DNA of 39,866 nucleotides, from positions 1 through 39,866 of the forward strand of contig CANHUG010000001.1 in assembly GCA_947462995.1 (NCBI GenBank). Reading direction: 5' to 3'. Position numbers and translations under genes: made by a program. The DNA comes from Verrucomicrobiales bacterium. Lineage in GTDB: Bacteria > Verrucomicrobiota > Verrucomicrobiia > Verrucomicrobiales > V1-33. How positions within the stretch are numbered: the first letter of the stretch is position 1; each line of letters begins with the position of its first letter. The notes beneath the pieces are model-generated. The model did not search any database, was not told the DNA's origin, and worked only from the letters and a program-made list of their open reading frames with translations. This document shows positions 4,800-37,156 of this stretch, piece after piece.

Positions 4800-7700
4800 A
4801 TGCGCTTCCTGATCATCCTTGCCGTCAGCCTCCTGCTCGGTCTGCTTGAGCCCGCTGCTGCTCAGACTCCCGGAAGCCTTGACGTGTCGTTCGGCAGCGA
4901 TTCCGCCATCAACGGCGATGTTCTCTCGATAATTCCGGCCGGGGACGGCAAGGTCTACATCGGTGGCGAATTCACAATGGTTCGTGGCGTGAAGCGCAAC
5001 CGCATCGCGCGGTTGAATGCCGACGGGAGCCTCGACACCGCTTTCAACCCCGGCACCGGAGCGGACAACTGGGTCAGTTCAGTGGCGATTCAGCAGGACG
5101 GGAAAGTGCTGATCGGGGGCGGTTTCACCGGCGTGAACGGGACGGCTCGCAACCGCATCGCGCGGCTGAATTCCGACGGAAGCCTCGACCCCAGCTTCAA
5201 CCCGGGCTCAGGGGCTAACAACTCGGTCCACTCGGTGGCGATTCAGCAGGACGGAAAGGTGCTGATCGGAGGTGATTTCCTCCTGATGAGAGGAACTGTG
5301 CGCAGCCGCATCGCGCGGCTGAATGCCGACGGCAGCCTCGACGCCACCTTCGACCCCGGCACCGGGGCAGACAAACTTGTCATTGCCTTGACGGTGCAGG
5401 GCGACGGGAAAGTGATCGTCGTCGGCAGTTTCACCCGCGTGAACGGGACAGGGCGCAACCGCGTCGCACGACTGAACGCCAACGGCAGCCTCGACACCGA
5501 CTTCAACCCAGGCTCAGGGGCGGACGCAACGGTCATTTCCGCGGCGATTCAGGGCGACGGGAGAGTGTTGATCGGGGGGGCGTTCTCCAACGTCAATGGG
5601 ACGGGGCGAAATGGTGTCGCTCGGCTGAATGCCGACGGGAGCCTCGACGCCGTCTTCAACCCCCGCCCCGCAGCGAGCAGCGTGATTAATGCCGTGGCGG
5701 CGCAACAGGACGGGAAGGTGCTCCTCGGCGGTTCCTTCTACTTCGTGAGGACGCCGCACTACGGCATCGCCCGGCTGAACTCCGACGGCAGCCTCGACGT
5801 CGGCTTCGACCCCGGAACGGGGGTCAGTAATGAGGTTGAAAGTGTGGCCGTGCAGGGGGACGGGAAGGTACTCATAGGCGGGCGGTTCAGCACCTTCGAC
5901 ACCGTCGGGGGAAACTCCTTCGCGCGGTTGAATGCCGACGGGAGTCTCGACACCACATTTTTCAACCTTGCCACCGGCGCAAACTACGGCGTCGGCACCG
6001 TGGCAGTTCAGGAGGACGGGAAGGTGGTGATCGCAGGCGGGTTCAACAGCGTGAATGCGACAAGGCGCCGTGGCATCGCTAGGCTGAATACCGACGGGAA
6101 CATCGACACCTCCTTTAGTCCAGTCCTGAACGGCTCGGTCTATGCCGTGGCCGTTCAGCGGAACGGGAAGGCACTCATCAGCGGGAGCTTCACCAGCGTG
6201 AACGGGACCGTGCGCAACCGCATCGCTCGGCTGAACACCGACGGCAGTCTCGACCCGAGCTTCAACCTAGGCACGGGGACGGACAGCTTAATCACCTCGG
6301 TGGAGGTACAGTGGGGCGGGAAGGTGCTGATCGGGGGCCCTTTCACCCTGGTGAACGGGGTCAGCCGCAACCGCATCGCCCGGCTGAATCCCGACGGCAG
6401 TCTCGACTCGTCCTTCAATCCCGGCACGGGAGCAGACTCAACGGTCAATGCCGTGGCGGTTCAGGGAGACGGAAAGGTTGTCATCGGCGGAGAGTTCACC
6501 ATCGTGAACGGGGTCGCACGCAACCGCATCGCCCGGCTGAACGCTGACGGCAGCCTCGACGTCGGCCTCAACCCTGGCGGCGGGGCGGACCTCGAAATCA
6601 ATGTCGTGGCAGTCCAAGCGGACGGAAAGGTGCTCATTGCAGGCCCCTTCACAAGAATCGGCGGCGTCAGCCGCAAACTCTTCGCAAGGCTCAACGCCGA
6701 CGGCAGTCTCGACTCCTCCTTCAATCCCGGCACGGGGCCGGACGAGCAGGTCAGTGCCGTGGCAGTGCAGGGCGACGGGAAATTGTTGATCGGGGGGCTT
6801 TTCACCAGCTTCAATGGGACAGGGCGCAACCGCATCGCACGGCTGAATGCCGACGGGAGCCTCGATGCCGGCTTCAACCCCGGTACGGGACTAGACCGCG
6901 CGATCGGTGCCGTGGCTGTGCAGGGCAACGGAAAGGTGCTGATCGGCGGTGATTTCACCCGAGTGAACGAAACGGGGCGCAACCGCATCGTCCGGCTGCA
7001 CAATGACATCGCCACCTCCCAACTGGCACCCGTCAGTTCAGGCAGGATCGAGTGGCGGCGTGGCGGCAGCGCTCCCGAGGTCACATGGGTTGAATTCGAA
7101 TTCTCAGTAGATGGTCAATCGTGGGTTCCGCTGGGATCGGGCAATCGCATCAACGGGGGGTGGGAATTGACGGGCTTGAATATTCCTCCCGAGGGCATGG
7201 TGCGCGCTAGCGGCCAATCGTCCGGCAGCAACAACTCCAGTCTCGTTGAGGAAGTAGCGTCCTATCGGCTCGGCAATCCCGAGATCGCGGTGAGCGGCAA
7301 AGGACTGAACATCGCCAGTGGAGATGCCACACCCGGGGCGGACGACAACACGGACTTCGGCAGCGTCGCTGCGGGCGGATCACCCATGGCGCACACCTTC
7401 ACCATCACCAACACGGGTCCGGTATCCCTCGCCCTCACGGGCTCGCCGCGGGTTGCCATCAGCGGCAGCACAGCCTTCAGCGTGACCAGACAGCCGGACA
7501 CAGCCACCGTTGCACCAGGCGGCAGCACGGTGACGTTCGACGTGAGCTTTTCCGCCTCGGCCGCCGGCCCGCAGTCGGCGACCGTAACCATCGCCAGCGA
7601 CGACACTGACGAGAACCCTTTCACCTTCGCAGTATCAGGCACAGGACCGAGTCCCGCCGACGCCTTCTATCACGCCATGACCATCGCCGGTCTCGCAGGC

Positions 7701-8081
7701 CCCACCGCGGCACCGGACGCCACCCCTCACGGCGACGGGGTGAACAATCTGCTCAAGTATGCCTTCAACATGAATCTCGCGGACAAGGACAGTCGGACCA
7801 TGCCGCCGGGCGGCACCGCCGGACTGCCAACCATCACCACTCAGCCGAACACCCCAGCCGGCATCCTGCGCTTCGAGTTCGTCCGGCGGATCGGTAGCGG
7901 CCTCATCTACACACCTCAAAAAAGCACCGACCCCGGCAACCCCGCATCATGGGTGCCCCTGACAGACACTCCATCCGTCAACGCCATCGACGCAGCATGG
8001 GAACGGGTAATCTACGAGGAGCCGTATGATCCCGCCGCTGCACCCCGCCTCTTCGGCCGCGTGCAGCTCCGGCTGCCGTAA
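4800..8081 (+). CDS. Secreted delta-60-like repeat (beta-propeller-type) protein with a choice-of-anchor-D-like domain and the shared C-terminal module
   Basis: Signal peptide MRFLIILAVSLLLGLLEPAAAQ from the ATG at 4800 (the track start 4728 is TTG). It has 14 tandem ~51-52-aa repeats of consensus [51 protein letters not shown]. An Ig-like module at 7272-7646 (GNPEIAVSG...FTITNTGPVSLALTG...VTFDVSF...ATVTIASDDTDENPFTFAVSGTG) resembles choice-of-anchor D. The C-terminal module (7647-8081) ends LFGRVQLRLP. Confidence 0.85.
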   Translation: MRFLIILAVSLLLGLLEPAAAQTPGSLDVSFGSDSAINGDVLSIIPAGDGKVYIGGEFTMVRGVKRNRIARLNADGSLDTAFNPGTGADNWVSSVAIQQDGKVLIGGGFTGVNGTARNRIARLNSDGSLDPSFNPGSGANNSVHSVAIQQDGKVLIGGDFLLMRGTVRSRIARLNADGSLDATFDPGTGADKLVIALTVQGDGKVIVVGSFTRVNGTGRNRVARLNANGSLDTDFNPGSGADATVISAAIQGDGRVLIGGAFSNVNGTGRNGVARLNADGSLDAVFNPRPAASSVINAVAAQQDGKVLLGGSFYFVRTPHYGIARLNSDGSLDVGFDPGTGVSNEVESVAVQGDGKVLIGGRFSTFDTVGGNSFARLNADGSLDTTFFNLATGANYGVGTVAVQEDGKVVIAGGFNSVNATRRRGIARLNTDGNIDTSFSPVLNGSVYAVAVQRNGKALISGSFTSVNGTVRNRIARLNTDGSLDPSFNLGTGTDSLITSVEVQWGGKVLIGGPFTLVNGVSRNRIARLNPDGSLDSSFNPGTGADSTVNAVAVQGDGKVVIGGEFTIVNGVARNRIARLNADGSLDVGLNPGGGADLEINVVAVQADGKVLIAGPFTRIGGVSRKLFARLNADGSLDSSFNPGTGPDEQVSAVAVQGDGKLLIGGLFTSFNGTGRNRIARLNADGSLDAGFNPGTGLDRAIGAVAVQGNGKVLIGGDFTRVNETGRNRIVRLHNDIATSQLAPVSSGRIEWRRGGSAPEVTWVEFEFSVDGQSWVPLGSGNRINGGWELTGLNIPPEGMVRASGQSSGSNNSSLVEEVASYRLGNPEIAVSGKGLNIASGDATPGADDNTDFGSVAAGGSPMAHTFTITNTGPVSLALTGSPRVAISGSTAFSVTRQPDTATVAPGGSTVTFDVSFSASAAGPQSATVTIASDDTDENPFTFAVSGTGPSPADAFYHAMTIAGLAGPTAAPDATPHGDGVNNLLKYAFNMNLADKDSRTMPPGGTAGLPTITTQPNTPAGILRFEFVRRIGSGLIYTPQKSTDPGNPASWVPLTDTPSVNAIDAAWERVIYEEPYDPAAAPRLFGRVQLRLP

Positions 8082-8487: not shown

Positions 8488-10173
8488 ATGAAGACGCCCC
8501 ATCTGCTCGCCGCGCTGACCGCAGCTTTACTGTGCGGGACTGGCATGCCGGCGACCGCGCAGACCGCCGGAAGTTTGGATCCGTCATTCGGTGATCAGTT
8601 CTGGCGGCGCAACTCGCTTTACGGCAGCCCTTGGGTGACAGTCATCCTTCCCGCCAGAGACGGGAAAGTCTATCTTGGCGGGTACTGCATCGATCTCATG
8701 GAAGGGACATCGCCCGGGTTGGTGATCGCGCGCCTGACCAGCGACGGCACCCTGGATGGCACGTTCGCGTCCGGTGTGGCTTCATGGCTTTGGGACAATG
8801 AAGACGCGGAGGTTCATGCGGCTGCCCTCCAGCCTGACGGAAAACTGATCATCGTGGGCGATGACCTCTTCGAATCAGCCCCCTCCGGCACAATGCTGAG
8901 GCTGAATGCCGACGGGACCCGGGACACTGGTTTCACGGCCAGAACTCTCCCGGTCCGGGACGGTGTCCGCATGCTCGCCGTGCAGGAGGACGGCAAGATC
9001 CTCATCGGCGCGGCCATTGTCTCGAAGGTGCCGCCATTTGATTTGCCCGGCACCACAACGGTGGGCATCCAGCGGTTGAATGCAGATGGCAGCCAGGACA
9101 CAGGGTTCAAGTCTGTCTCGCTCGCGGAATCCCAGGGCTTCGAGACGACCACGTGCGTCGTCGTGCTGCCCGACGGCAAGCTGCTCATCGGCGGTGAGGG
9201 TTATGCCTCAGTGTTCGCCAATGGGCGCAGTTGTCTCCGACTGAACACCGATGGCAGCCTTGACGCAAGCTTCGGACCGGTGGTCGTCGACGTGGATCAG
9301 AGCCAATCGCTGGGCGTTGTGTACCGTGGCACCGTCGGGTCCATGGTGAGGCAAGCTGATGGCAAAGTGGTGATCGGTGGCTGGTTCACGCATGTGAATG
9401 GGTCGCCAAAGAACAGCATCGCCCGCCTGAACGCCGATGGCAGCCTCGACGAGAGTTTCGACGTCGGCCTGCGGCAGGGTTCACAGGTCACCTGCATGGC
9501 GCAGCAGAACGACGGCCGGATCCTTGTGGCCGGGTGGAATATCAACGTTCTTGGCACGCGATACGCGACCATCGCAAGGCTTGAAGCGGATGGCAGTCTC
9601 GACAGGAGCTTCAGTCCCGGCACCCCCAGCCAACACGGCATTAGCACCATCGGGCTCGAAGCCGACGGGAACGTCCTCGTCGGCGGCGGTTTTACCCTGC
9701 TGAACGGGGTGCCCCGCCGAGGATATGCCCGCCTGCTGGGCAGCGAAAGGCCGACGCCGCGGGATCGCTTTGCCACGGCCGCGCAGGCAGCCGGGCTTTC
9801 CGGAGAAGCGGCCGCTCCAGAATCGGCACCGCAGGGCGATGGGGTGGCGAATCTCCACAAGTATGCCTTCAACCTCGACATGCATCGGGCCGATGGCGGC
9901 ACCATGTCTCAAGGCGGTGTGCGCGGTCTCCCGTCCCTGCTGCCACCGCGGGCAGCTCGGACCTTCCGTTTCGAATTCCTGCGTCGTCGCAACAGTGGCC
10001 TGGTATATATCCCCCAGCTGACCACGAGGCCCGACATCGCGTCGTGGTGGCGGACCCTCACCGGGATAGCCCCGAAAATCGATCCCATCGATGCAACATG
10101 GGAACGCCTGACCTACGAGGTGAAACGCAACGAACCCAATATCTTCTTCCGGGTGGAGGTCAGGCTGCCCTGA
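8488..10173 (+). CDS. Secreted delta-60-like repeat protein (about 7 degenerate blades) with the shared C-terminal module
   Basis: Signal peptide [25 protein letters not shown]. It has seven looser repeats carrying (A/L/Q)RL(N/T/E)(A/S/T)DG(S/T)xDxxF. The C-terminal ~140 aa (about 9745-10173) align clearly with the tail of the upstream protein (..[30 protein letters not shown]...[18 protein letters not shown]...ATWERLTYE...[10 protein letters not shown]). Confidence 0.85.
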
Positions 10174-10413: not shown

Positions 10414-13400
10414 TCAACGCATCCTCACGCGCAATCTGACAAACTTCCGCTGTCCAACCACCGGCACGACTGCGCGGACAGTCTGGAGGCCATCCGCTTC
10501 GCCTACCACCTCAAGGACGCTGTCCGAAGGGATCCAACCCACCGTCGCTTGCGGATCAGTCGCCTCCTCTAGCGCCCAGCTCACGACCTCGGCCATCGCC
10601 GCCGGCCGGTCGAACTCGATAACCAGTCCGCCATCGGTGACCCGCGACCGCACCGGCTGCGGCCCGGAAACCAGCGGATCAAGACCGAGCGCAAACTCTA
10701 GCAGATTCACCGTGCCGTCCCCGTCCGGATCCGCACCCGGCGCCGCCCGGCCGCCAGCCTCCAGCGACGCAAATTGGCGAAGCCGCCATTCATCCATCGG
10801 CGAAAGTTCCATGCCCACCGCAAATGCCGACTCCCTCGCAAACCCGCCCCCAATGCCCGCGCCGTCTACGGCCTGCACCGACCAGTAGTACACCCAAGGC
10901 GATAGATTCCGCATGACCTTCCTCGGCACCCGCTGCTCTCCAGGGTCCATGGTGCGCCTCACCCCCGTCACGAGGTCCGCCGGCGGAAACGCGATTTCCT
11001 TTCCGCCAGCAGTCGTCCCAACCCGCAGGCTGTAGGTCAAGCCCCGCCGAGGCGTGCGGTCATCGGCCGGCATCTGCCACGTTAGCAGTACCGAGCCCAA
11101 CTCGCTGCCGGGTTCCGCCTTGAGCCCGGACGGTGCGTCCGGCGGGAGGTTCGCTCTGGAAGAATTGTTGAGCGCCAGCTTCAGTCCTACGCACAAGTCC
11201 GGCATGCCGTCACCGTCAAGGTGGCCCCACCCAGTCGCACCAGAAGACTCGGAAAATCCCCCGTAACCCACTAGCGGTGAACCAACATCGTAGCCAACCC
11301 CTCTGCTCCGGATGAAGTTATGATTGGGCAGCGCCATCGAGTCCAACCCCCCGTCCCCATCAGCATCCACGAACCCGCTCGCCCTACTCGGGAGGTTGGC
11401 GCCAGCACCCTCTGCCATCCAGATGCCGATCCGCACGTACCTCGAGGAATCCCTCCGGATCATCCGGAAACTGCTGCTCCCAGCAGGTTCGACGGCCGTG
11501 CAATCAACATCGCCATCCCCGTCGAAGTCCATGAACTCCAGAGTCGCCGTCGCGGATATCGGACCACTAGGCAGCAGACCCTGCAAGCCTTCGGTGAAGA
11601 CGCCGGCTTCATTCACGAGGATGCGCCTCCAGTAGGTGGCCGGTGAGGTGCCAGCGATGATCCCACTAGCGAAAATATCACGGTCGCCGTCACCGTCGAA
11701 ATCATGCCATGCCAGCGTCGAGGCGCTGGCAGTGCCCGGCACTTCAACTCCCGGGGAAAAACCCGCCGGTCCACGTATCAGCAGACGCATCCCCGCGTTG
11801 CTCGACAACACCGATAGATCAAGGTCCCCGTCACCGTCCCAGTCCCCTCCCTCGACCGTCCAGATCCCCGTCGTTCCGGGCTGCAGCGGGAATCGATCGT
11901 CCACGACAAATCCCGAACCCGTATTCCGAAGCACCCGGCTCGTATACGGGAACCTAGTGTCACCCACCACAAGGTCAGGCAGCCCGTCCCCATCGACGTC
12001 CACAATGCCCCAGAGCCAGAACCCCGTGAGCAACCACTCAGGCGGCGGCGGGGCCATGACGCCTCCCTCGTTCCGATTGATCGTGATCCAGGTGCCGACC
12101 GTGGAAGTCGAACTCTGAATGATCAGATCAAGATCGCCGTCGCCATCCATGTCCGCCCAGCGACTCATGCGGATGGTATTGCCCGGCAGCCCGGGAAGAT
12201 CCATCCGCTGCCATGCATTGCTGAAGGTCATGATCGCGCCCATGGCCATGTCGACCGCATTCTCGGCAATCATCCGGTAGTGGATCAGATCGCCCGTCGG
12301 AAGCCCCGCCACCGCCATGGATAGCTCCACCGGAGCCGCAGCCGCCGCCTGCACCTGCACCGCCGTCCGGTTGCCCAGTGCCCTAGTGGTTCCCCACTCG
12401 AAGTACCACCGCGTCTCCAGCCCCCCCGTATCCAGCCGTCCGCGCATCCGCGACGAATCCCTCCCGATTTCCTCGACGCTGAGCGTCGTTACCCCTGGGC
12501 GCAATCTCACCTCCACCATTTGCTCAGGCGCAAAACGACCCCCGCGCAGCCCAGCGTCGATCGCCTGCACCGACCAGTAAAGTCGACCACTGCTCGGCAG
12601 CGTGGCAAGTAATCCACCCGCAACACTCAGCGGGCCGTTCTCCGCAAGCAGGCGCCGCCCGTCAGCACCGGCATGCGCAGGCATGATGTCATTGAGACCC
12701 GGCGCGCTGCCAATGCGGACGCGGTACGTGTGACCCCGTCCGTCGTGCTGCCACCGCAGCCGGACGTATCTCCCCTCCGTCGTCGCCACCAGTCCCGTCG
12801 TCGCCACCAGTCCCGTCGGCGCCGCCGGCGGCGCCGACGGCTGCCCAAGCGGGTTGCGCCATGCAGACACCGTCCAAGGCCCACCAGCAACCGCTGGCAG
12901 AGCCGCCGCCACCACGTCAAGCCGACCGTCCCCGTCAAGGTCCACACACGCAAGGCTCCCCGCCTTGATCGTCGGCAGCTCCGCAAGAACCTCATCGATC
13001 CGTCCATTGCGGTTGGCGATAACCCGAACGGGGGATCCGCTATCCCAGGAGCCGGCCATCACGAAGTCCGGTGCCCCATCGCCGTCCAGATCCGCCGCGG
13101 CCAGCCGGGCACTCAGGAATCCAGTCGTGCTGTTGCCGTTGCTGAAAAAGTAGCCGTAATGATTCAACGAGAGAGCAGTCATCCTCACAAGGCCGACAGA
13201 GCCGCTGCTGATCGCGTCCACATCGCCGTCCAGGTCGAAGTCAGCGAGAACCGCAGCCCCGGACGGCGTCATGGTCAAGGTATCGAATCCGGCACCCCCC
13301 GGTCTGACCAGGGTCACCGTGGATCCAGACTGCGAATCAAGGATGCCGTCCCTGTTCACGTCAGTCCAGGAATCAACGAAGGACGTCACGTCTAGCCGTC

Positions 13401-26723: not shown

Positions 26724-27394
26724 GCCACTTTCAGCCGGTAACCCGCCCCGCGGACAGTTTCAATCACCGGCACCCCCGCCCCGCCTTCCAGCTTCTTCCT
26801 CAACCGCATGATGAAAATCTCCACCGTCCGCGTGTCATACTCATGCTCCCGCTGCCAGATCCGCTCGCAGATCTCATCGCGCGAAAACGTCCTCCCCGGC
26901 TCGCTCAGCAGAATCTTCAGCACTTCCATCTCCCGCGGCGACAACGCCACCGCCTCCCCACTCACCACCACCCGCCGCGCCCTCACATCCATCGTCAGCT
27001 CGCCCGCCTGCAGCACATCCGACTTCTCCACCGGAACCCCCCGCCGCCCCAGCGCCTCCACCCGCGCTAGCAATTCCTCCATCGCAAACGGCTTCGTCAG
27101 ATAGTCATCCGCACCCGCCTTCAACCCCTGCACCCGATCCCCGATCTCCGCCCTCGCCGTCAGCATCAGCACCCGCGACCCGGAACCGGACTTCCTCAAT
27201 CGCTGCATCACCTCGAATCCATCCATCCCCGGCAGATTCACATCCAGCACCACGATGTCAAAGCGCCCGCTCAACGCCTGCTTCAATCCCCCTGGCCCGT
27301 CCGCCGCATGCTGCGCATCATGGCCCGCACGCGTCAGCGCACGCACCACATGCCCTGCAAGGGCTTCTTCGTCTTCAATCACAAGAGTGTTCAT
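26720..27394 (-). CDS. OmpR/PhoB family DNA-binding response regulator
   Basis: Receiver domain: MNTLVIEDEEALAGHVVRAL...DIVVLDVNLPGMDGFEV...LMLTARAEIGDRVQGLKAGADDYLTKPFAMEELLARV. Winged-helix output: ..LSPREMEVLKILLSEPGRTFSRDEICERIW.......TRTVEIFIMRLRKKL......IETVRGAGYRL. Confidence 0.93.
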   Translation of the reverse strand: MNTLVIEDEEALAGHVVRALTRAGHDAQHAADGPGGLKQALSGRFDIVVLDVNLPGMDGFEVMQRLRKSGSGSRVLMLTARAEIGDRVQGLKAGADDYLTKPFAMEELLARVEALGRRGVPVEKSDVLQAGELTMDVRARRVVVSGEAVALSPREMEVLKILLSEPGRTFSRDEICERIWQREHEYDTRTVEIFIMRLRKKLEGGAGVPVIETVRGAGYRLKVA

Positions 27395-27500: not shown

Positions 27501-29768
27501 TCACGGCCGCGGTCTGCTCACCGTCAGCCGCATGAACCTCATCGGTCCCGCCGAAACACTCACCGTGTCCCGTGCCCGCAGCATCACCCCGGAACTGCCC
27601 ACCACCGCCGCAGGCGTCCACGTCCGCAGATCCCCACTCACCTGCACCGCCACCACCGCATCCTTCGGGCGCAACGGGCTGAGCGGAACCTGCATCCATT
27701 GATATTTCGACCCACCCACCGCTTCAATCCCATGCTGCAGCCACCCCGGCGCTGATCGATACGTCGGATCCAGTCCCAGCGCATACTCAATCTCATCCGC
27801 CAGTCCGTCACCATCACTGTCCACCCCGGATTCCGCCACCCCCACCGTCAACGACACCGCAGCCGGCAGCGACTCCCGGTAACCAGACGCATCGCTCGCC
27901 GTCCACGTGAATCCATCCGCTCCGCTGTATCCAGGCTCAGGATAATACACCGCCGACATCCCGCTCACACCCACCGTCCCATGCTGCGGCTGCTGCACGA
28001 TCCGAATCACCGGAGCCGTCCCACCCGCCGGCAGCAGCACCATCGTCGGCCCTTCCCCTGCCACCGCCTTCGCCATCCCCGCCACCGACGGCCGCAACCG
28101 GGTCGTAGCATTGCTGCTCGACGGCCCGTTGTGACACTCATAACAACCTACCTCAACGCCGCGTACCAACGCAAGGTTCCCGTACTTCGTGCTCAACGTC
28201 CGGTCCCCGAACGCCCTCGACAGCACCGTCCCACGGTAATCCTTCCCATGACACTTCTGACATTCCACCAGCCCAACCGCCCGCGCATCGTCCGCATGCT
28301 CCCGCGCCCACCCATTGCCAGTCGGATGCATCCCGTGAGGTCCGCCCGCCACCGTCACAGGCATCGCAGCATGACAGGCCGTGCACTCCGCGAGCACCCC
28401 CACATGCCCCTGCAGCGCCACTGCATGAAGGTTGTCATTCCGATGCGTCGCCGGAAACTCCGCATGCGTCGACCCGTGACAAGCCGAACACTGCAACCCG
28501 CCATGCCCGCTCGAAAACCGGTACAATGACTTCCCCGCCGCCGGAGTGTCCGCATTCGTCGCAAACCTCCGGTTCGCTGGCTCTCTCATCCGGCCCGGCG
28601 CAGCAAACGAACTCAAATACCGGATCAGCCCGTCGTTGTTCACCGCATCGCCACTGTGACACGACTGACATGTCGGCTCGTCCAGCCAACCCGTGCGCGT
28701 CTCCGCACCCACATCGCCCATCCCGCCGTGACAACTCTGACACTGCATCGCCATCGCTCCATCCGCACCCACCGCCGCACCCATCGCCCCACGCAGACAC
28801 TTCGTCGCCGACCCCGGATGACATTGATAGCACGCCGTCCGGCTCGCCGATGATCCCAGCGGCAAACGGTCGTCCGGATTGATCACCGTCGCATGCTTCG
28901 CATGCATCGATCGCGTCAGCGGCGCCACCCCCGGATACCCTCCCGTCCCCAGCGCCTCCGACGCATGACACGCCGCACAAAGCACCGCCTTCCCCCGGTG
29001 CACCGCACTCTCATACAACCCTTCCGCCGCAAACCCCTTCGCCGCCAGCGCCGCCGCATAAACCGCAGACCCCGCACTCCGTTCATCATGCAGCCGCAGA
29101 ATATTCAGCCGGAAATCCCTCCGGCCATCCGGCTCGTTCACCCATCCGCCCGCAGGCTCTCCAGCAGGCCCGGACCCCGACGCATGGCAAGCCCGGCAAT
29201 CCATCTCGTCCGACACCGGCAGCACCACCTCCGCCTTCGCTAGCAACGCACCCGCCGCATTCCGCGCCGTGACCCTCATCAGCGGATAAGCATTGCGCCG
29301 CCCCACATCATCCACCGGCGTAATCGGAATCCCCGCCGCCTCAAACCACCGCATCCCGCCAACCCACGTCATCGCCTGCGGCACATTCGCCACTCCAGGC
29401 ATCGCATTCCCAGCCAACCCCAGCTCCGGCCGCAGCGCCACCCCATACCCGCCAACAGCAAACTCCCAGAAGTTCGTCTTCCCCGCAGAATGCGTGTTGA
29501 TCGATCCGTCAGGGTCCGCCACCGCCTCGTACGTCAGCCGGATGCCCACCGCCGCAGCATCCACCACCAATCGCCCGCTCTGATCGAGCAGTTGCGCGTT
29601 CACCGTGTTGAACGGCGGCAGAATCGAGAACACCGAGTAGTCGTCGTCCATGCAGTGCATCCCCAGATTGTTCCACGCTGTCAGGGTCCACTGACCACCC
29701 CCGGCACCCGCCCGGCACAAAACGCCTATCATGACACCTAATGTCATTGCGGAGATTCGAATGTTCAT
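27501..29768 (-). CDS. Secreted nonaheme c-type cytochrome fused to an Ig/cadherin-like domain and the shared C-terminal module (755 aa)
   Basis: Signal peptide MNIRISAMTLGVMIGVLCRAGAGG. Hand indexing finds nine CxxCH motifs: CRACH 191, CAACH 264, CYQCH 313, CQSCH 343, CQSCH 367, CSACH 427, CTACH 462, CQKCH 503 and CYECH 542 (nt about 28131-29198). The heme-free N-terminal ~160 aa begins WNNLGMHCMDDDYS. The Ig-like segment is IVQQPQHGTVGVSGMSAVYYPEPGYSGADGFTWTASDASG. The tail is DSDGDGLADEIEYALGLDP...MRFMRLTVSRPRP. Confidence 0.88.
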   Translation of the reverse strand: MNIRISAMTLGVMIGVLCRAGAGGGQWTLTAWNNLGMHCMDDDYSVFSILPPFNTVNAQLLDQSGRLVVDAAAVGIRLTYEAVADPDGSINTHSAGKTNFWEFAVGGYGVALRPELGLAGNAMPGVANVPQAMTWVGGMRWFEAAGIPITPVDDVGRRNAYPLMRVTARNAAGALLAKAEVVLPVSDEMDCRACHASGSGPAGEPAGGWVNEPDGRRDFRLNILRLHDERSAGSAVYAAALAAKGFAAEGLYESAVHRGKAVLCAACHASEALGTGGYPGVAPLTRSMHAKHATVINPDDRLPLGSSASRTACYQCHPGSATKCLRGAMGAAVGADGAMAMQCQSCHGGMGDVGAETRTGWLDEPTCQSCHSGDAVNNDGLIRYLSSFAAPGRMREPANRRFATNADTPAAGKSLYRFSSGHGGLQCSACHGSTHAEFPATHRNDNLHAVALQGHVGVLAECTACHAAMPVTVAGGPHGMHPTGNGWAREHADDARAVGLVECQKCHGKDYRGTVLSRAFGDRTLSTKYGNLALVRGVEVGCYECHNGPSSSNATTRLRPSVAGMAKAVAGEGPTMVLLPAGGTAPVIRIVQQPQHGTVGVSGMSAVYYPEPGYSGADGFTWTASDASGYRESLPAAVSLTVGVAESGVDSDGDGLADEIEYALGLDPTYRSAPGWLQHGIEAVGGSKYQWMQVPLSPLRPKDAVVAVQVSGDLRTWTPAAVVGSSGVMLRARDTVSVSAGPMRFMRLTVSRPRP

Positions 29769-29835: not shown

Positions 29836-32451
29836 TCAGGGATGACTCAGCCGGTAAAACCGCCGCGGCCCGACAAGCTCCACCAGCGCCGTCAACCCAT
29901 TCGCCGCCGGCACCACCGCAGCCCCACTCGGACGCCAACCCGCCACATCCACACCGTCATTCTCCTCCAGCACCCAACCCGTCGCATCCGCAGCCCAAGT
30001 CAGCCGCATCCGACCGCCAGCCTCCGCTTCCACTCCCAGCACGGGAACAAACACCGCCGTCAGCACCCGATCCGCCGTCGCCGTAAACGAATACTCCTCC
30101 GCCCGACTCACCTCCACTCCACCCTCGATCCACCGCACAAACTGATACCCTTCAGCCGCCACCGCCCGCAACCTCACCTCCGCTCCATCCACAGGAAATC
30201 CTCCCCCGCTCACCGTCCCGCCACCAGAGGGAGCCGCCCCGACACTCACATTCCACGAAATCCCGCTGCCACCAGCAAAGGTCGCCACCAGATGCCGCAC
30301 CGGATTCGCCTTGAATTGATACTCCGCCTCCGTGCTCACCTCCACTCCATTCTCCTTCCAACTCAAAAACGTGTACCCAGGATTCGCCGTCGCCGTCACC
30401 GTCACTTTATCCCCATCCTCAAACGTCCCCTCGACCAACGCCGTCCCGCCCTGCGGCGGACTCGACTCCACAGTCACCGGATAAACCCTCACAAACCGCG
30501 CCGTCAGGGTCCGCACCGCACCGACCGTGAAACTGTACTCCGCCGACGTGCTCACCGTATTCCCGTTCTCCTGCCAGCGCTTGAACTGATACCCCGCACT
30601 CGCCACCGCACGCACCGTGCAAACCGATCCAACCGCCAGGGTCCCACCCCCACTCGCCGTCCCTCCCGCCGTCGGATTGCTCAGCGTCGCAATCGTGCGC
30701 ACTCCGCCGTCCACCGTGAAATTCGCCACCAGCACGCGGTTCGCCGCCGCTGCAAAACTGTAACTCGCCGACGCACTCACCACCGTCACTCCCTCCGTCC
30801 AGTTAGTAAAAACATACCCGCCAGCCGCCACCGCCCTCACCGTCACCATCGTCCCCTCATCCTTGATCCCCCCGCCGCTCACCGTACCGCCAGCCACAGG
30901 CAACGCCACCGTCTCAATGTTCCACTGCGGCACACTCACCGCAAACTTCGCCACCAGCGAATGATTCACATCCATTTCAAAGCTGTGCCTCGCCTCCACA
31001 CTAACCACCGCGCCCGCCTCCTCCCAGTGCACAAACCGGTACCCGGCCCCAGCCACCGCCGTCACCGTCGCCATCGCTCCCACCGCATACGCATCACTCC
31101 CAGTCACCGTCCCGCCAGCCAGAGGCTCCGCCACCGTATCCAGCACATAATGCGGCGCCACCTCTCCATCCGCCCCGCTCACCGTCATCGTATACGTCTT
31201 CGCCTTCTCCGGCGTCGCCTCATCACTCGCCGTCACCGTGAAAGTGAACACTCCCGCATCCTCAGGCGTCCCCGACAACACCCCGGTCACCGCATCAAAA
31301 CTCATCCCCGCAGGCATTGCCCCCGACACCCGGCTGCTGAACGGCCCCACCCCCGCAATCACCACCGTCCGCGGCGCATACTCCTCACCCGCCACCCCGT
31401 CACTAACGTGCTCGGTCAACCCCACCCCGGCATCCACATCCACCGCCGCCATCTGCGCCCCAGTGTACTCACCCACCACCTCCACTCCGCTCAGATCCGT
31501 CAGCACGCCATTCACTTCCTTTAACCCAAGGCCATGCACGCCATCGGGCGCCACCGAATCACACATCGCCTCCCCCGTCTCCGTATCCACCGGCCCGTTG
31601 TAGCGGTAGAATTCATAACGCCGCGTCACCACTTCATCCCCCTGCTCCAGCGCCTCCGGAGCCGCTTCGTGATTCCCGTTAGGCCCGCCATCCGCCCTCG
31701 CAAACTCCGTCTGCATCAGCTCCCACTCGGTCTCCACTTCGTCCGGCTCGCCATTACGCCAGTTCTTGTCATTCGGATCGTCAGGATCATCGGATACCAG
31801 ATCCCGCAGCTTCACCTCCCCGTTGTTGTGCGTCGTCGTCCGGATTTCCTTCACCCACACCGGCTCCCCGAACTCCTTCACCGGAACCTCCGCCGGCTCA
31901 GGAGGCTGAATCACCGCCTGCACCTGCGCCGGTGCCGCCGCCACCGGAGGATAATACACAAACACCGGCGTCGCCACCTGCACCACTCCCCCGTTCACCA
32001 GATTCCCAGACCCGTCATCCACCAGCCAGTGATAACGCACCGCCGTCGGCGGCGTCATGTACCCCACCCCGAAATGCTCGCCCCCGAAATTGATGCTCGG
32101 ATTCGTGAACATATGCCCGTCCGTCGCCGCAATCGGCCCCGCCGGAATCGCCGTGTACGACGCCCACGTCCCATCCGCATTCTTCCTGCTCGCCCACCGG
32201 ATCACGCACTTCGGATGCCCAGCCACCGTGTTGTCCTCGGTGATCTTCGGCACGCCGTAATGATTGTAATCATACGTGTAGCTGATGTCCGTGCTCCGGC
32301 AGTCATCCAGCTCGATCTCGAACCCATGACACTCTTTGCCAGTGTCGTTGACCGTGTCGAAATTGTTAATACTCCCGTACGCAATGCTCGCGTGACCCCG
32401 GCCCGCAGAGCAGGCCAGCATCAATGACAGTATCCATGTCCTGATTTTCAT
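29836..32451 (-). CDS. Secreted multidomain protein (871 aa): unknown N-terminal domain, Ig-like (He_PIG-type) domain, five InlB-B-repeat-like modules and a C-terminal RFYRL tail
   Basis: Signal or lipoprotein-like N-terminus MKIRTWILSLMLACSAG. About 355 aa have no motif I recognise. Then comes an Ig-like unit (GAMPAGMSFDAVTGVLSGTPEDAGVFTFTVTASD). Five ~75-aa repeats follow, of pattern V...p..GGtvsGgG.y..G..vtv.A.a..GY.F..W.E.g..vs....ysF.......l.A.F (about 30050-31165). The tail is ..RMRLTWAADATGWVLEENDGVDVAGW...RRFYRLSHP. Confidence 0.85.
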   Translation of the reverse strand: MKIRTWILSLMLACSAGRGHASIAYGSINNFDTVNDTGKECHGFEIELDDCRSTDISYTYDYNHYGVPKITEDNTVAGHPKCVIRWASRKNADGTWASYTAIPAGPIAATDGHMFTNPSINFGGEHFGVGYMTPPTAVRYHWLVDDGSGNLVNGGVVQVATPVFVYYPPVAAAPAQVQAVIQPPEPAEVPVKEFGEPVWVKEIRTTTHNNGEVKLRDLVSDDPDDPNDKNWRNGEPDEVETEWELMQTEFARADGGPNGNHEAAPEALEQGDEVVTRRYEFYRYNGPVDTETGEAMCDSVAPDGVHGLGLKEVNGVLTDLSGVEVVGEYTGAQMAAVDVDAGVGLTEHVSDGVAGEEYAPRTVVIAGVGPFSSRVSGAMPAGMSFDAVTGVLSGTPEDAGVFTFTVTASDEATPEKAKTYTMTVSGADGEVAPHYVLDTVAEPLAGGTVTGSDAYAVGAMATVTAVAGAGYRFVHWEEAGAVVSVEARHSFEMDVNHSLVAKFAVSVPQWNIETVALPVAGGTVSGGGIKDEGTMVTVRAVAAGGYVFTNWTEGVTVVSASASYSFAAAANRVLVANFTVDGGVRTIATLSNPTAGGTASGGGTLAVGSVCTVRAVASAGYQFKRWQENGNTVSTSAEYSFTVGAVRTLTARFVRVYPVTVESSPPQGGTALVEGTFEDGDKVTVTATANPGYTFLSWKENGVEVSTEAEYQFKANPVRHLVATFAGGSGISWNVSVGAAPSGGGTVSGGGFPVDGAEVRLRAVAAEGYQFVRWIEGGVEVSRAEEYSFTATADRVLTAVFVPVLGVEAEAGGRMRLTWAADATGWVLEENDGVDVAGWRPSGAAVVPAANGLTALVELVGPRRFYRLSHP

Positions 32452-32649: not shown

Positions 32650-34395
32650 TCACAATGACGCCGGCAGCAACCCAGTGAAGAGGTCCGTGTCCCCTTTGCG
32701 GATCTTCACCACCGCGCCGGCACTTGCGAAGTCCAGCATCAGGTCCCCGCGCGCCGCGTCTGGCTCGGTATCCCAGCGCAGCTTCGCTTCACCCCCGGCA
32801 CTCACCAGCACCCCGCGCACCACCCCGTCGATCAGCACCGCATACTCCCCGTCCTCTAGCGCCTCGGCCTCCACCTCAAGACTGACAATCCCCGCCACCC
32901 CGAAGTCCGCAGCAGCCGTCACCACCGCCGCCGCCGGCGCTTCCGCCGTCCGCGTCAGGACCACCGCGCCAGCCGGAGTCTCACCACCGCCACCATCCTC
33001 ACCATCCGCCACTCCGGGACCAGCCGCAGGCACGTTCCCCGTGAAATACACCGCCTCACCCTGCACAATGCTCACCGGCAATCCCGCCGCCGCAAAATCC
33101 AGCGGCAGCCTCCCCTCCGATATCTTCGCCTCGGTGTCCCAGCGGACTTTACCCTTGCCTCCCGATACCGTCATCACCGCTCGCTCCTCGCCCCCGATCA
33201 CCACCGTGTAACTCCCCGCCTCAAGGGCCTCAACCTCCAACTCCAGCGATACCACCCCGGCTCCGCCAAACTCCGCTTCAAGCTTGCCCTTCGCACTCAC
33301 CGGAGCAGCCGGCCCCGGAATCAACCGGTCAGACCCCGGCGTCACCACCACTCCAACACCCGTCGGCGCATCCGGCGGCTGCGGCACCGTGCCCGCAAAG
33401 TAAACCACTCCAGCCCTGCCAACCGTGATCGACTTCCCGATCACATCAATTGTCAGGTTGATCTCATCCTGGTCGTTCGCATTCGTCTCCCACTGCTGCT
33501 CGCCCTCGCCACCAGCATCAATCACCATCTGCCCGATCACCACTCCATCGACCGTCACGTCCACCGCACCAGCCGTAAGGCCGCGCGCATCAAGCTCCAG
33601 CTCCACCTTGCCGGTCGCCATCCGCTGAATCTTCACACGGCTCCGGCTGCCCGAAGGAGCCGCCTGCCGCGCAAGACTGACCTGCACTTCCAGCTCGTCG
33701 GCTTCACCACGGTGATCCGGGTCGTTGTTGTCCTCGACTCCGTCATTGTCGTCATCCGCATCCGCACGGTCCGGAAGGCTGTCACCATCGTCGTTATCCT
33801 CCGCCGCATCGTCATCGGCGCGATTGTCTCCATCCGTATCCATCTCGGCGTTGTCATCATTGTTCCTCCCGTCGCCGTCCACGTCCGCATCATTGTCATC
33901 GCTCGTGTTGTCACCGTCGATATCCATCTCCGTGTCGTCGTCGTCCGCAAATCCATCCCCGTCGATGTCGTCTTCCGCAGCCTCATCGTCATTCTGCCCG
34001 TCGCCATCAACATCCCGCTCCGCCGCACTGTCATCATTCCGGCGGTCCCCATCCGTATCGTTCTCCAGGGGGCTGTCGTCCGCACGGCCATCACCATCAA
34101 TGTCACGGTCGGCCAGCGATCCATCGTCCTGCCCGTCGTCATCAATGTCACGCTCCGCAGGACTGTCGTTGTCGAGGTGGTCCCCGATGTGCTTCCCGGC
34201 ATGCGGTCCGGACCGGGCAATTCCGCCATCAATGTTGCGGTCAAGGGCATTCGGTACCCCGTCGTTGTCAATGTCAGGATCGACAATGTTCGGTACCCCG
34301 TCTCCGTCAAGATCAGGCGCCCGCCCCGCCGCACTGGCGGAAGCTGCGGCAAACAGGGTGGCGGCGACAAGGGCGCTGAGGGATCGGCTTTTCAT
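32650..34395 (-). CDS. Secreted hyper-acidic thrombospondin-type-3-like calcium-binding repeat protein with three ~105-aa beta-rich repeats (581 aa)
   Basis: The ATG at 34395 gives MKSRSLSALVAATLFAAASASAAG, a signal peptide. About 225 aa of DxDxDGxxDD-type repeats follow (DLDGDGVPNIVDPDIDNDGVPNALD...DIDGDGRADD...DVDGDGQNDD...DIDGDGFADDDD...DVDGDGRNNDD...). Then come three related modules, each ending (Y/L)F(A/T)G..P and containing (R/Q)W(D/E)T(E/N) and L.(L/I)DF/DV motifs. It has no RF.RL.V tail. Confidence 0.85.
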   Translation of the reverse strand: MKSRSLSALVAATLFAAASASAAGRAPDLDGDGVPNIVDPDIDNDGVPNALDRNIDGGIARSGPHAGKHIGDHLDNDSPAERDIDDDGQDDGSLADRDIDGDGRADDSPLENDTDGDRRNDDSAAERDVDGDGQNDDEAAEDDIDGDGFADDDDTEMDIDGDNTSDDNDADVDGDGRNNDDNAEMDTDGDNRADDDAAEDNDDGDSLPDRADADDDNDGVEDNNDPDHRGEADELEVQVSLARQAAPSGSRSRVKIQRMATGKVELELDARGLTAGAVDVTVDGVVIGQMVIDAGGEGEQQWETNANDQDEINLTIDVIGKSITVGRAGVVYFAGTVPQPPDAPTGVGVVVTPGSDRLIPGPAAPVSAKGKLEAEFGGAGVVSLELEVEALEAGSYTVVIGGEERAVMTVSGGKGKVRWDTEAKISEGRLPLDFAAAGLPVSIVQGEAVYFTGNVPAAGPGVADGEDGGGGETPAGAVVLTRTAEAPAAAVVTAAADFGVAGIVSLEVEAEALEDGEYAVLIDGVVRGVLVSAGGEAKLRWDTEPDAARGDLMLDFASAGAVVKIRKGDTDLFTGLLPASL

Positions 34396-34501
34396 TTTTT
34401 GTGCAATGGTTGGGGCGCTCACGTGAATATTGGATCGGATCGCCGGATGAATCAAAGTGTCTGAGGTAACGGTGTGGTTGGGAAATCGTCGGCCCTCCAT
34501 C

Positions 34502-37156
34502 TCAGCGCACCACGCGGTGCCTCAAAAACCGTCTCCGTGCCCCCGGCAACGCGCTCCCATCACGAATCAAAACCTCCCTCACCCCCGCCCCCGCAATCTC
34601 GCCCGACACATACCCAACCCCGCTCCATGGCCCGCCATACACGCTCATCGCCAACGTGTTCCATGGCCCCGCAAGATCGTCCGCCACCTCCACCGATACA
34701 GTCACATCGCTCCGCGCCGGATCCCGCCGCACTCTGCTCTCCAGCACCCCGCCCAACCCCATCACCACCTCCGGCAGCGACCCGGCATCATTCACCGTCG
34801 GATTCAGCAGCAGCCCGTATTCCGCAAGATTCGGCACGCCGTCGAAATCAGGATCCCCCAGATCCGCCGCTTCCGCATCGCCCAGCCACTCCTGTTTCCA
34901 CTGCTGCAGCGGCCCAAACGCGGAAAACCGGAACACCGTGCCACCACCACCCGCCCCGCCCGCAGGCGTCGTCCCCGTCACCACACCGTCCGCCCCAACC
35001 AACACCCCACCCGTCACCACCAATCCACCATCCACAAAACCTCCCCGCCCCGGAGCCTCCCCGCCATTCCCAGTAAAAGAAAACAATCCCTCCAGGCCCA
35101 CCCCCGCACGGTACTTCCAGACCGCCCCATACCCTCCCGTCCCGCCTTCCGTCGTCATCCCGTAAAGCGCTCCATCCGCACCCACCGCAACCGACCCCGC
35201 CGGCACCACACCCGTCGCCCCTCCAAACTCCGCCACCACCGCCCAGTCATTGCTCGCAGGCCGCACCCGGATCAGCGCCCCGCCATCCGCCGCCCCTCCC
35301 CGACTCACCGTCCCGTACAAATTCCCGTCAACCCCTAACACCAACCCACCCAGCGGCACCCGCGGCCCACTCGCCGTAAACTCCCCGACCGTCGTCAGCA
35401 CCCCGCTCGCAGACACCCGGAAAATCGTCCCTGCATCCGCCGCCCCACCGCCTTCTGTCATCCCGTAATAACTCGCATTCGGCGCTAACACAACTCCACC
35501 CCGGGGGCGCAATCCCTTCGCCGTCCCTGCCGTTCCCGTAAAGCTAACCACCCGCGTCCGCACTCCCGCCGCCGTCACTTTGTAAATCGTTCCCCGCCCC
35601 GTCGCCCCGCCTTCCCTCGCCGTCCCGTACATCCCCCCGTCACTCCCCAATACCAGCGGCCCCTCCGGCAGGCTCCCGCCACTCAACGTCGCCGCCGACA
35701 CAGCCGCCAATCCCGCCTCGCCAAACCGATACACCGTTCCCCGCCCATTCGCCCCGCCTCCAGACGCCACCCCGTAATAATCCGCACCCACCCGCACTAA
35801 CGTCCCCTCCGGCGCACTGCCGATCAGCCCGCCTAACATCACATCCACCGCCACCGCCCCGCCCGCTCCCATCCGCACCACCGTCCCGCCACCATTCAAC
35901 CCACCCGTCCGCATCGGAAAAAGCCAGTCCGCACCTCTCGCCACCGGCGCTCCCGACGGCATCCAACCCATCGGCGCCCCAAACGCCGCAACCACCCCAT
36001 ACACCCCACCCGTCGACACCCTGAAAATCCCGCCATTCTCCCCCACCATCCCCGCACTGACACTCCCGTACAGCCAGCCATCGCCTCCCAGCGTCAACCC
36101 GCCCCGCGGCACCGATCCCGCCGCCGCCCCCACCGTCCCCGTCAACGATGCCACCACCGCATGCACCCCGCCAGTCGTCAGGCTGAACACAGTCCCGAAC
36201 CCACCCGCGCCCCCGCTAGCCGTAGTCCCATACAGCAACCCATTACTCGCCCGCGCCAGCGCCCCCGTCGGCTGCGATCCCGTCGCATCCGCAAACGCCC
36301 GCAAACTCGTGAACGCCCCCGCCGTCGTCAGCCGCCACGCCGTCCCGAAATCGTTAGCACCCCCGAACTCCGTCGTCCCGTATAGATTCCCGTCACTGTT
36401 CAGCAGCAACCCGCCCCCAGGATTCGCCCCTGGCCGCGCCCCTCCCGTCCCGCTGAATTCCGCTAGCAATCCATACACCCCGCTCGTCGTCACACTGAAC
36501 ACCGTCCCAAGACCTGCACTCCCGCCCTCGCGCGTCACGCCGTACAATGTGTTCCCATTGAACACCATCGCCCCCACCGGCCCGGACCCTTTCGCCGCTC
36601 CACCCGTACCCGTGAACTCCACCAGCGTCGTCAGCACCCCGCCAGTCGTCAGCCGGAACACCGTCCCGAACCCGCCCGCACCACCAGCCGCCGTCGTCCC
36701 GTAAAAATTCCCGTCACCGTGCCGCACCAGTTGCTGCGGCACCGCCCCGCGCGCCGCACCACCCGTCCCCGTAAACGAAAGCACCGTCGCAAACTGCCCA
36801 GCCTCCGTCACCCGGAACACCGTCCCGTACCCGCCCGCACCACCCTCACTCGTCGTCCCGAAAAACTCCCCGCCCAACCCAGCCGTCAACCCGCTCACCG
36901 GACCCGCCCCATCACTCCCGCCAAACGAATGCACCGTCCTAACCACGCCGTCACCACCCACCCTGACCACTGACCCCAGTCCATTCGCCCCGCCCGCCGA
37001 CGCCGTCGCATACCACCGCCCATCCCCCCCGGCACTCAACGGTGCCATCGGCTGCACCGCCGGCCGCTCAAACGCCGCCACCAACTCATACCCCGCCAAC
37101 GCCCGCATCGCCGTGCACGCCATAGCTGAAAGTCCGATCGTCAGGTGTCGCTTCAT
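34502..37156 (-). CDS. Secreted GloVer (Gloeo_Verruco) tandem-repeat protein with the shared C-terminal module (884 aa from the ATG at 37156)
   Basis: Signal peptide MKRHLTIGLSAMACTAMRALAG. About 14 repeats of ~47-50 aa follow, of pattern G.LYGTT..GGa.g.GTvFrl...G..t.l..F.g..Ga.p.g.L....dG, which is the signature I recall for the choice-of-anchor GloVer repeat. The tail is LQQWKQEWLGDAEAADLGDPDFDGVPNLAEYGLLLNP...RRRFLRHRVVR. The track start 37195 is GTG. Confidence 0.88.
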   Translation of the reverse strand: MKRHLTIGLSAMACTAMRALAGYELVAAFERPAVQPMAPLSAGGDGRWYATASAGGANGLGSVVRVGGDGVVRTVHSFGGSDGAGPVSGLTAGLGGEFFGTTSEGGAGGYGTVFRVTEAGQFATVLSFTGTGGAARGAVPQQLVRHGDGNFYGTTAAGGAGGFGTVFRLTTGGVLTTLVEFTGTGGAAKGSGPVGAMVFNGNTLYGVTREGGSAGLGTVFSVTTSGVYGLLAEFSGTGGARPGANPGGGLLLNSDGNLYGTTEFGGANDFGTAWRLTTAGAFTSLRAFADATGSQPTGALARASNGLLYGTTASGGAGGFGTVFSLTTGGVHAVVASLTGTVGAAAGSVPRGGLTLGGDGWLYGSVSAGMVGENGGIFRVSTGGVYGVVAAFGAPMGWMPSGAPVARGADWLFPMRTGGLNGGGTVVRMGAGGAVAVDVMLGGLIGSAPEGTLVRVGADYYGVASGGGANGRGTVYRFGEAGLAAVSAATLSGGSLPEGPLVLGSDGGMYGTAREGGATGRGTIYKVTAAGVRTRVVSFTGTAGTAKGLRPRGGVVLAPNASYYGMTEGGGAADAGTIFRVSASGVLTTVGEFTASGPRVPLGGLVLGVDGNLYGTVSRGGAADGGALIRVRPASNDWAVVAEFGGATGVVPAGSVAVGADGALYGMTTEGGTGGYGAVWKYRAGVGLEGLFSFTGNGGEAPGRGGFVDGGLVVTGGVLVGADGVVTGTTPAGGAGGGGTVFRFSAFGPLQQWKQEWLGDAEAADLGDPDFDGVPNLAEYGLLLNPTVNDAGSLPEVVMGLGGVLESRVRRDPARSDVTVSVEVADDLAGPWNTLAMSVYGGPWSGVGYVSGEIAGAGVREVLIRDGSALPGARRRFLRHRVVR

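Follow-up and report, generated by a model that had tools for sequence, protein, structure and literature searches.

Several unrelated secreted proteins are encoded close together in one stretch of Verrucomicrobiales DNA; do they share a C-terminal domain and, if they do, what might it be for? The stretch, called the window from here on, comprises the 39,866 nucleotides (nt) at positions 1–39,866 of contig CANHUG010000001.1 (GenBank assembly GCA_947462995.1). An initial annotation, made from the letters of the window, proposed that six of its signal-peptide proteins end in a related tail, and that this tail is a lineage-specific sorting or anchoring tag. The tails represent a single, autonomous extracytoplasmic domain, ~125–145 amino acids (aa) long, currently unannotated and referred to below as the module; five proteins carry it in full, and the sixth ends in a weak, partial relative. 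The six proteins, labelled A–F, are as follows:

4728–8081, + strand: protein A, delta-60 repeats (TIGR02608), then choice-of-anchor D (NF012200, residues 851–962)
8488–10173, + strand: protein B, delta-60 repeats
10414–20499, − strand: protein C, a 3361-aa FG-GAP giant with 18 FG-GAP_3 stretches
27501–29768, − strand: protein D, a nine-haem cytochrome with cytochrome c7/MtrC-like matches and nine CxxCH motifs
29836–32451, − strand: protein E, five Flg_new_2 (InlB-B) repeats
34502–37195, − strand: protein F, 13 GloVer repeats (TIGR03803)

The coordinates and passenger assignments first given for these proteins are correct: they agree with the list of open reading frames (ORFs), the passenger families match Pfam and NCBIfam models above curated cut-offs, and the haem-binding CxxCH motifs of D are present in the expected number. 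Judged by eye, all six N-termini resemble signal peptides. In the public gene calls, E (861 aa) and D (743 aa) begin 10–12 codons downstream of the longest ORF and thus lack part of the signal peptide.

Relatedness and fold of the tails

Searched either as parts of whole proteins or alone at E ≤ 10, the tails match no described Pfam or NCBIfam domain above threshold; the only library matches are faint and all fall on the acidic loop (EF-hand_1, E 0.071; TSP3_bac, E 0.0069; MtsD-type TSP3, E 0.0041). BLAST between the tails links C to all five others, and A and B are 46% identical. Since a database of six tails is tiny, two controls based on hidden Markov models (HMMs) were run. Firstly, leave-one-out HMMs recovered most of the module in C (3.6e-13), D (1e-05) and F (5.5e-06), only the loop in A and B, and nothing in E. 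Secondly, an independent HMM was built from 156 database modules that share <50% identity with every window tail. This HMM matches A, B, C, D and F with a bias score of 0 and coverage from position ~5–23 to 135–137 of 141, and each envelope closes on the last residue of its protein; no other ORF of the six-frame window matches. The resulting features, with independent-HMM E-values, are:

7629–8081, + strand: module of A, subfamily ii with a degenerate loop (E 1.2e-29); helix 7665–7694, loop TPHGDGVNNLLK 7722–7757, last strand LFGRVQLR 8049–8072, then LP and the stop codon
9742–10173, + strand: module of B, subfamily ii (E 2e-22); 12-residue loop 9826–9861, last strand IFFRVEVR 10141–10164, then LP and the stop codon
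10414–10821, − strand: module of C, canonical form (E 7.7e-25); W-helix 10765–10797, EF-hand loop DPDGDGTVNLLE 10696–10731, last strand KFVRLRVR 10423–10446
27501–27884, − strand: module of D, no W-helix, ends RPRP (E 2e-18); canonical EF-hand loop DSDGDGLADEIE 27786–27821, last strand RFMRLTVS 27516–27539
34502–34930, − strand: module of F, behind the GloVer passenger (E 1.9e-22); W-helix 34880–34909, loop DPDFDGVPNLAE 34820–34855, last strand RFLRHRVV 34508–34531
29836–30024, − strand: tail of E, short (~62 aa) and beta-only, ends RRFYRLSHP; strand 29842–29862, no helix/EF-hand half

Matches of 1e-18 to 1e-29 confirm the proposed relationship for A, B, C, D and F, and it holds once compositional bias is controlled. 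The tail starts first proposed were close, the HMM envelopes deviating from them by only ~20–80 nt (A 7629, B 9742, C 10821, D ~27884, F 34930).

AlphaFold2, run on the C tail with a 39-sequence alignment, predicts one compact unit (predicted local distance difference test score, pLDDT, 94.4; predicted template-modelling score, pTM, 0.85). The 129-residue model has helices at residues 2–11 and 33–38, and strands at 51–56, 59–67, 74–81, 98–103, 106–113 and 121–128; its beta half is predicted to be an fn3-like beta-sandwich, described as seven-stranded. All three elements on which the initial annotation based the tail—a stretch containing W or F, an acidic loop and a beta-rich region—map onto this module. 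Helix 1 accounts for the W/F stretch, a 12-residue loop together with its exit helix for the acidic loop, and the sandwich's final strand for the 'basic/hydrophobic' strand at the terminus. What does not stand is their division into a short tag and a terminal signal strand: the prediction is of one globular fold.

The loop has the consensus D-P-D-G-D-G-x-x-N-L-L-E, with the EF-hand ligand pattern at positions 1, 3, 5, 9 and 12 and Gly6, and is followed by an exit helix, NLLEYALGxDP, that is also helical in the C model. By its sequence, the loop is a predicted TSP3-like Ca2+ site. Its canonical form (D1, D3, D5, G6, N9, E12) occurs in 101 of the 156 representative modules and in C, D and F, whose loops fit D-x-D-x-D-G-x-x-[ND]-x-x-E; those of A and B do not. 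The latter belong to a second subfamily with the loop T/A-P-x-x-D-G-V-x-N-L-L-K, in which positions 1 and 3 are altered and Lys replaces Glu12 (K12 in 31/156 representatives). Established EF-hand chemistry suggests that this subfamily has lost Ca2+ binding. Across the 156 modules the most conserved positions are W13, the loop, Y44/A45, P50, W95, F129 and R131 (94% each). The final strand reads R-F-x-R-L-x-V; between it and the stop codon lie 2–4 residues, the last of them usually Pro.

Foldseek comparison of the C model with the PDB returns generic fn3/immunoglobulin (Ig)-like sandwiches (best match 6nmy_D, cytokine receptor beta-c; query-normalized template-modelling score, TMq, 0.46; E 1.3e-3), with neither a T9SS (type IX secretion system) C-terminal domain (CTD) nor a dockerin structure among the top 50. 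Searching PDB sequences with profiles gave no match (best E 0.29–0.44). A candidate match to discoidin/CBM32 (F5_F8 type C), at E 0.44 with a 6-sequence profile, disappeared with the 39-sequence profile, is absent from the Foldseek top hits, and was rejected. No description of the module emerged from literature searches, whether by motif string or for Verrucomicrobial C-terminal domains.

Neither the full family HMM nor one restricted to the beta half detects the tail of E. Compared directly, its final ~60 residues can be aligned with the beta half of certain modules (P0074, P0141 and P0087; whole-sequence E 3e-7 to 8e-6) and with homologues of the C tail (E 1.5e-4). Searched with phmmer, it gives a best E of 1.5e-4 and 12 matches below E = 1, while 100 shuffles, run on a reduced database, reach 0.25 at best and yield no more than three such matches each. 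The AlphaFold2 model of E (pLDDT 80, pTM 0.66) has six main strands ordered as in the beta half of C, and draws the same class of weak fn3/Ig-like Foldseek matches. Direct similarity beyond that of shuffles and the same predicted strand order, in the absence of an HMM match, make E probably a truncated relative that consists of the sandwich only, rather than a full member.

That chance or composition—Gly/Ala/Arg-rich, high-GC coding with acidic DxDxDG loops—explains the resemblance is scarcely credible: the window's G+C of 57–68%, the DxDGDG loops inside C and in the neighbouring protein G (described below), and the failure of every family HMM to find E would favour it, but the whole-module matches of the independent HMM at zero bias, the leave-one-out recovery of C, D and F and the confident common predicted fold refute it for the five full members, and even E outscores 100 shuffles.

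Size, distribution and position of the family

Searching representative clusters (50% identity) with a 7-sequence profile returned 24,145 clusters at E ≤ 1e-3, 5,025 at ≤ 1e-10 and 20 at ≤ 1e-30. The exhaustive profile search was needed for this; a single-sequence, word-indexed search with the C tail gave three matches only. Named members carry labels such as 'hypothetical protein', 'PKD' and 'choice-of-anchor D domain-containing protein [Verrucomicrobia bacterium]', and no precomputed Pfam domain spans the module in them. A genome scan with the seed ADPDGDGx[PVN]N, confirmed by tblastn with eight closer sequences as query, found at least 360 relatives, of which the best 80 were analysed. These 80 loci, ranked by likeness to a Verrucomicrobial query, comprise 78 from Verrucomicrobiota, one from Victivallales and a partial copy in a Limnocylindrales bin. 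The 78 span all major orders (Verrucomicrobiales, Akkermansiaceae, Opitutales, Chthoniobacterales, Methylacidiphilales), and the top-scoring locus (93% identity) is from the metagenome-assembled genome of a pond Verrucomicrobiaceae. The profile search suggested by the initial annotation and the genome scan together found a large, Verrucomicrobiota-centred family, almost confined to that phylum among the best 80 loci of the sampled genomes, in line with the lineage-specificity first proposed.

The position of the module is tightly constrained. Among full modules in the genomic sample, 90/93 end ≤ 3 residues from the stop codon and 79 exactly at the last residue; the three exceptions include one that is apparently frameshifted and one with a 27-residue, non-hydrophobic extension. 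In a second set, all 98 full modules are C-terminal. After F-x-R-L-x-V there are 2–4 residues in 247 of 293 proteins (84%), exactly three in 160, and the last residue is Pro in 176 (60%). Strict C-terminality, as first envisaged, describes most of the family; internal placement, which the initial annotation counted among the results that would speak against a sorting tag, is seen in a minority, where complete copies stand internally or in tandem. Multi-copy proteins number 48 among the 137 representatives that score highest and have a full module (44 with two copies, three with three and one with four), a set that ranking by summed score enriches for them; the copies are usually adjacent, with gaps of 0–20 residues. 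Ten of the 137 lack a C-terminal copy, among them a family (P0004, P0026 and P0070) in which as many as five tandem copies lie ahead of another, conserved C-terminal domain that ends ...GEQWAVYY...PAPYQP. The less biased genomic sample has two copies in 1/92 ORFs. The helix/EF-hand part alone (profile positions ~7–55) is matched in 12 top hits, up to 21 times each. This repetition elsewhere identifies that part as a widespread TSP3-like 'DxDxDG...G-x-D-P' repeat.

Module proteins are typically predicted to be exported. A signal-peptide-like N-terminus was seen in 50/62 module ORFs with complete N-termini against 105/311 neighbouring ORFs (Fisher 9e-12) by a crude test; of its 12 'negatives', several are artefacts of ORF calling or plainly begin with a signal peptide. 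The passengers are diverse, bearing out the claim that the module sits on otherwise unrelated signal-peptide proteins: among 57 module proteins, choice-of-anchor D is found in 11 and delta-60 in 10, and others carry RCC1, FG-GAP, PKD, fn3, leucine-rich repeat (LRR), cadherin-like, laminin-G or glycanase domains. The slot after choice-of-anchor D is indeed occupied by the module, which directly follows that domain in 11/57 proteins and in A (where choice_anch_D ends ~15 residues upstream). Models of the known sorting signals PEP-CTERM, T9SS CTD and LPXTG give nothing at E ≤ 10, again as first noted.

The expectation that the GloVer tail would be interchangeable with known sorting signals was not borne out. 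Of the 120 closest GloVer homologues of F, 107 end in the module (12 of these with two copies) and the rest in a short beta-only tail; none (0/120) has PEP-CTERM in its place. Homologues with the short tail include P0283, P0306, P0366, P0370, P0375, P0382, P0384 and P0386, with endings such as ...FFRVxEP and ...ARFYRLxP. This second short (~60 aa) beta-only C-terminal tail, ending ...[FY][FY]R[VLM]xxP, resembles that of E; a small HMM built from the short tails did not recover E. The short beta-only tails may be a separate unannotated C-terminal family or a truncated form of the long module.

Function and genomic setting

The best single explanation for these observations, which we hold tentatively, is a shared role in envelope targeting or retention. 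The sorting or anchoring function put forward at the outset fits the position, the cargo and the absence of known signals, and is kept here in that provisional form. As envisaged, the module would be recognised after export as a folded, Ca2+-stabilised unit, would dock non-covalently on a common outer-membrane or surface component, and would keep or place its passenger at the cell envelope. Such a docking module seems more likely than a cleaved sorting signal because (i) the module is a 130-aa globular domain with an EF-hand, (ii) its copy number differs between homologues, (iii) it can sit internally, and (iv) it has no hydrophobic anchor or cleavage motif. A copy number of one to two among homologous GloVer proteins is as expected for a binding or retention module. 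The passengers also include a multihaem cytochrome of the MtrC/MtrF-like class, whose members work at the cell surface, and we count this in favour of the envelope role.

Several points weigh against an envelope role. The taxonomic sample, being the best 80 of at least 360 loci, is biased toward the relatives of the Verrucomicrobial query that confirmed it. In 10 of the 137 top-scoring representatives the module is only internal, with other domains after it. Since A and B have lost the Ca2+ ligands, Ca2+ would not be essential to any shared function. Sandwiches of the fn3-like type are common as spacer or adhesion domains. No gene family recurs beside module genes when 522 ORFs from the 80 loci are clustered, and the source contig beyond both window ends holds no secretion or sorting machinery and no further modules, only housekeeping genes.

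A serious rival, which we nevertheless consider somewhat unlikely, is that the module has no sorting role and is an extracellular domain of an ordinary structural or ligand-binding kind (a stalk, cap, adhesion or glycan-binding unit). Its C-terminal bias would then stem from gene shuffling, and the terminal Pro would protect against periplasmic C-terminal proteases. The generic fn3-like fold suits an ordinary domain, as do the tandem and internal copies, the lack of linked machinery at the 80 loci, and an EF-hand unit that is a TSP3-like motif repeated inside other giant proteins and present also in the Amuc_1099 family. What an ordinary domain explains poorly is the terminus: with 97% of genomic copies ≤ 3 residues from the stop codon and an almost fixed length after the last strand, the constraint is tighter than expected for a generic mobile domain, which counts against such a reading and is its weakness. 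Moreover, one ligand role is ill-suited to beta-propellers, a multihaem cytochrome, glycanases and LRR adhesins alike.

Less probable still is a secretion signal like the T9SS CTD, whereby an unidentified Verrucomicrobiota translocon or sortase would read the folded C-terminal sandwich; the passenger would be exported, and the domain might be cut off, with a lipid or glycan anchor attached in its stead. A strictly C-terminal position with a sharply defined end, an Ig/fn3-like sandwich of CTD-like size, one tail on many signal-peptide passengers, the slot after choice-of-anchor D (the usual place of sorting domains) and cargo genes dispersed without linked machinery, as for T9SS cargo, are all consistent with such a signal. 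The module nevertheless shows no likeness to T9SS CTD models at E ≤ 10 or to a T9SS CTD structure in the top 50 Foldseek matches, and bears an additional EF-hand subdomain; tandem and purely internal copies exist, and we know of no cleaved sorting domain that occurs in either form; and no candidate machinery was found in the window, the adjoining contig or the 80 loci. We regard as a similarly long shot the broader proposal that Verrucomicrobiota possess, throughout the phylum, an undiscovered pathway for export across or attachment to the outer membrane, with the module as its cargo tag. Such a pathway would be functionally analogous to the T9SS CTD system but built from unrelated components, and its machinery would read a folded EF-hand/fn3 domain with a fixed ...F-x-R-L-x-V-x-x-P C-terminus.

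Returning to the window, the absence of recognisable machinery stated at the outset was confirmed, and extends to the adjoining sequence. At the 80 loci the commonest neighbour is a LuxR-type response regulator (7/80); PSD1/PSCyt/DUF1501 pairs and PATR proteins also occur. Past its upstream end the contig carries the gene of a Prc/Tsp protease and those of a metallo-beta-lactamase-fold protein and a cytochrome-c protein of 1005 aa; toward the downstream end come a RidA protein and a methyltransferase. Besides the genes listed below, the window encodes a threonine-aldolase-like lyase and a RidA protein:

1–1073, − strand, continuing upstream (L084 3908–6274): 788-aa tail-specific protease Prc/Tsp (TSP_NTD, PDZ, Peptidase_S41, DUF3340)
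23179–24828, + strand, and 37145–38692, + strand: alpha-solenoid paralogue pair (gene-caller lengths 441 and 473 aa)
25359–27394, − strand: OmpR-type response regulator and HAMP/HisKA sensor kinase, directly downstream of D on the same strand
32650–34500, − strand: protein G, a 616-aa acidic, TSP3-like signal-peptide protein

Prc degrades periplasmic proteins from non-polar C-termini, while Pro is the last residue in 60% of module proteins. Because the protease gene is not a recurrent neighbour at the other 80 loci, its closeness to module genes here may be coincidence. Protein G begins within the end of the F gene, the start of one overlapping the stop of the other; numerous DxDGDG/DxDxDG TSP3-like units make up a very acidic N-terminal half, and its C-terminal half has three ~100-aa repeats (…GVVSLELEVEALE.G.Y.V.I.G…). 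It has neither a Pfam match nor a C-terminal module. The two paralogues, each beside the cluster of secreted-protein genes, are 29% identical over ~350 aa and have repeated 'W..x.P..A..W' alpha-solenoid-like units behind an N-terminal hydrophobic segment, with no Pfam match. On the + strand, GC skew is negative over 4001–39866 and below −0.18 from ~10 kb on (minimum −0.42); most long genes in the skewed stretch from ~10 kb lie on the − strand.

Significance and comparison with known systems

Verrucomicrobiota encode very many giant secreted proteins, and to our knowledge it is largely unknown how these cross, or stay on, the outer membrane. A single unannotated domain is common to at least 24,000 protein clusters and tied to the C-terminus of signal-peptide proteins. 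The module thus offers (i) a ready computational label for the exported or surface proteome of the phylum, (ii) a seed for phylogenetic profiling toward a partner gene, and (iii) a small, confidently predicted fold for fusion, deletion and Ca2+-chelation work. Even if it is only a structural cap, it deserves a Pfam/NCBIfam model, without which the C-termini of many 'hypothetical' and 'choice-of-anchor' proteins stay unexplained.

Among known systems, the T9SS CTD (Por_Secre_tail, TIGR04183/PF18962) resembles the module in being an Ig-like sandwich (predicted, in the module's case) at the extreme C-terminus of Sec-exported proteins, with one tail on many passengers, dispersed cargo genes and a place after choice-of-anchor domains. 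The two differ in that there is no sequence match and no top structural match between them, and the module is ~50 residues longer, has an N-terminal helix and EF-hand subdomain, and occurs in tandem or internal copies in a minority of proteins. T9SS hosts belong to Bacteroidota and the wider Fibrobacteres–Chlorobi–Bacteroidetes (FCB) group, while 78/80 module loci are from Verrucomicrobiota, in which no search was aimed at T9SS genes. The T9SS CTD is removed by the sortase PorU during secretion, whereas no translocon, sortase or cleavage is known for the module.

The signals PEP-CTERM, LPXTG and GlyGly-CTERM share with the module a C-terminal place on signal-peptide proteins, after choice-of-anchor and GloVer domains. 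Signals of the PEP-CTERM type are ~25–35 residues long and consist of a motif, a transmembrane helix and a basic tail; the module is a 130-aa globular unit with no such helix or motif. The window tails end in a beta-strand plus 2–4 residues and have no NCBIfam match, and so fall outside PEP-CTERM (TIGR02595).

In its loop, the module resembles TSP3_bac (PF18884) and the EF-hand: DPDGDGxxNLLE has the ligands at 1, 3, 5, 6, 9 and 12, and is followed by a helix ending G-x-D-P. The likeness stays below threshold, with EF-hand_1 (PF00036) reaching 13.1 bits against a cut-off of 25.4, and TSP3_bac E 0.0069 in one member only. The module differs further in having a single loop fused to a beta-sandwich and a fixed C-terminus, and in its A and B versions without ligands.

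The Amuc_1099 family (NF042425) of Akkermansia has an EF-hand/exit-helix motif of ~25 residues at profile positions 128–152 of 321. Amuc_1099 belongs to the Akkermansia pilus-like cluster Amuc_1098–1102. Only the motif is shared: sub-threshold matches occur in 7/57 module proteins (e.g., P0128 residues 575–599 and P0013 residues 168–189), the highest score, 49.2 bits against a cut-off of 50, is reached by summing copies, and no window protein matches. Amuc_1099 itself is an envelope-fraction protein encoded beside a secretin in Akkermansia (PMC5332112).

The fn3/cytokine-receptor-like sandwiches are the best structural matches for the beta half of the C and E models; the match is weak (TM-score ~0.45, E ≥ 1e-3), and the tails have no PF00041 sequence match.

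Finally, dockerins are, like the module, usually C-terminal, Ca2+-dependent modules with EF-hand-like loop-helix units. A dockerin (PF00404) has two Ca2+-binding loop-helix repeats of ~22 residues and no sandwich, whereas the module has a single loop and a sandwich; no Pfam dockerin match was found in the window proteins or tails, and no cohesin-like partner was identified. Dockerins attach diverse secreted passengers non-covalently to a surface scaffold, and by analogy theirs is the mechanism that we consider most similar to the one the module would use.

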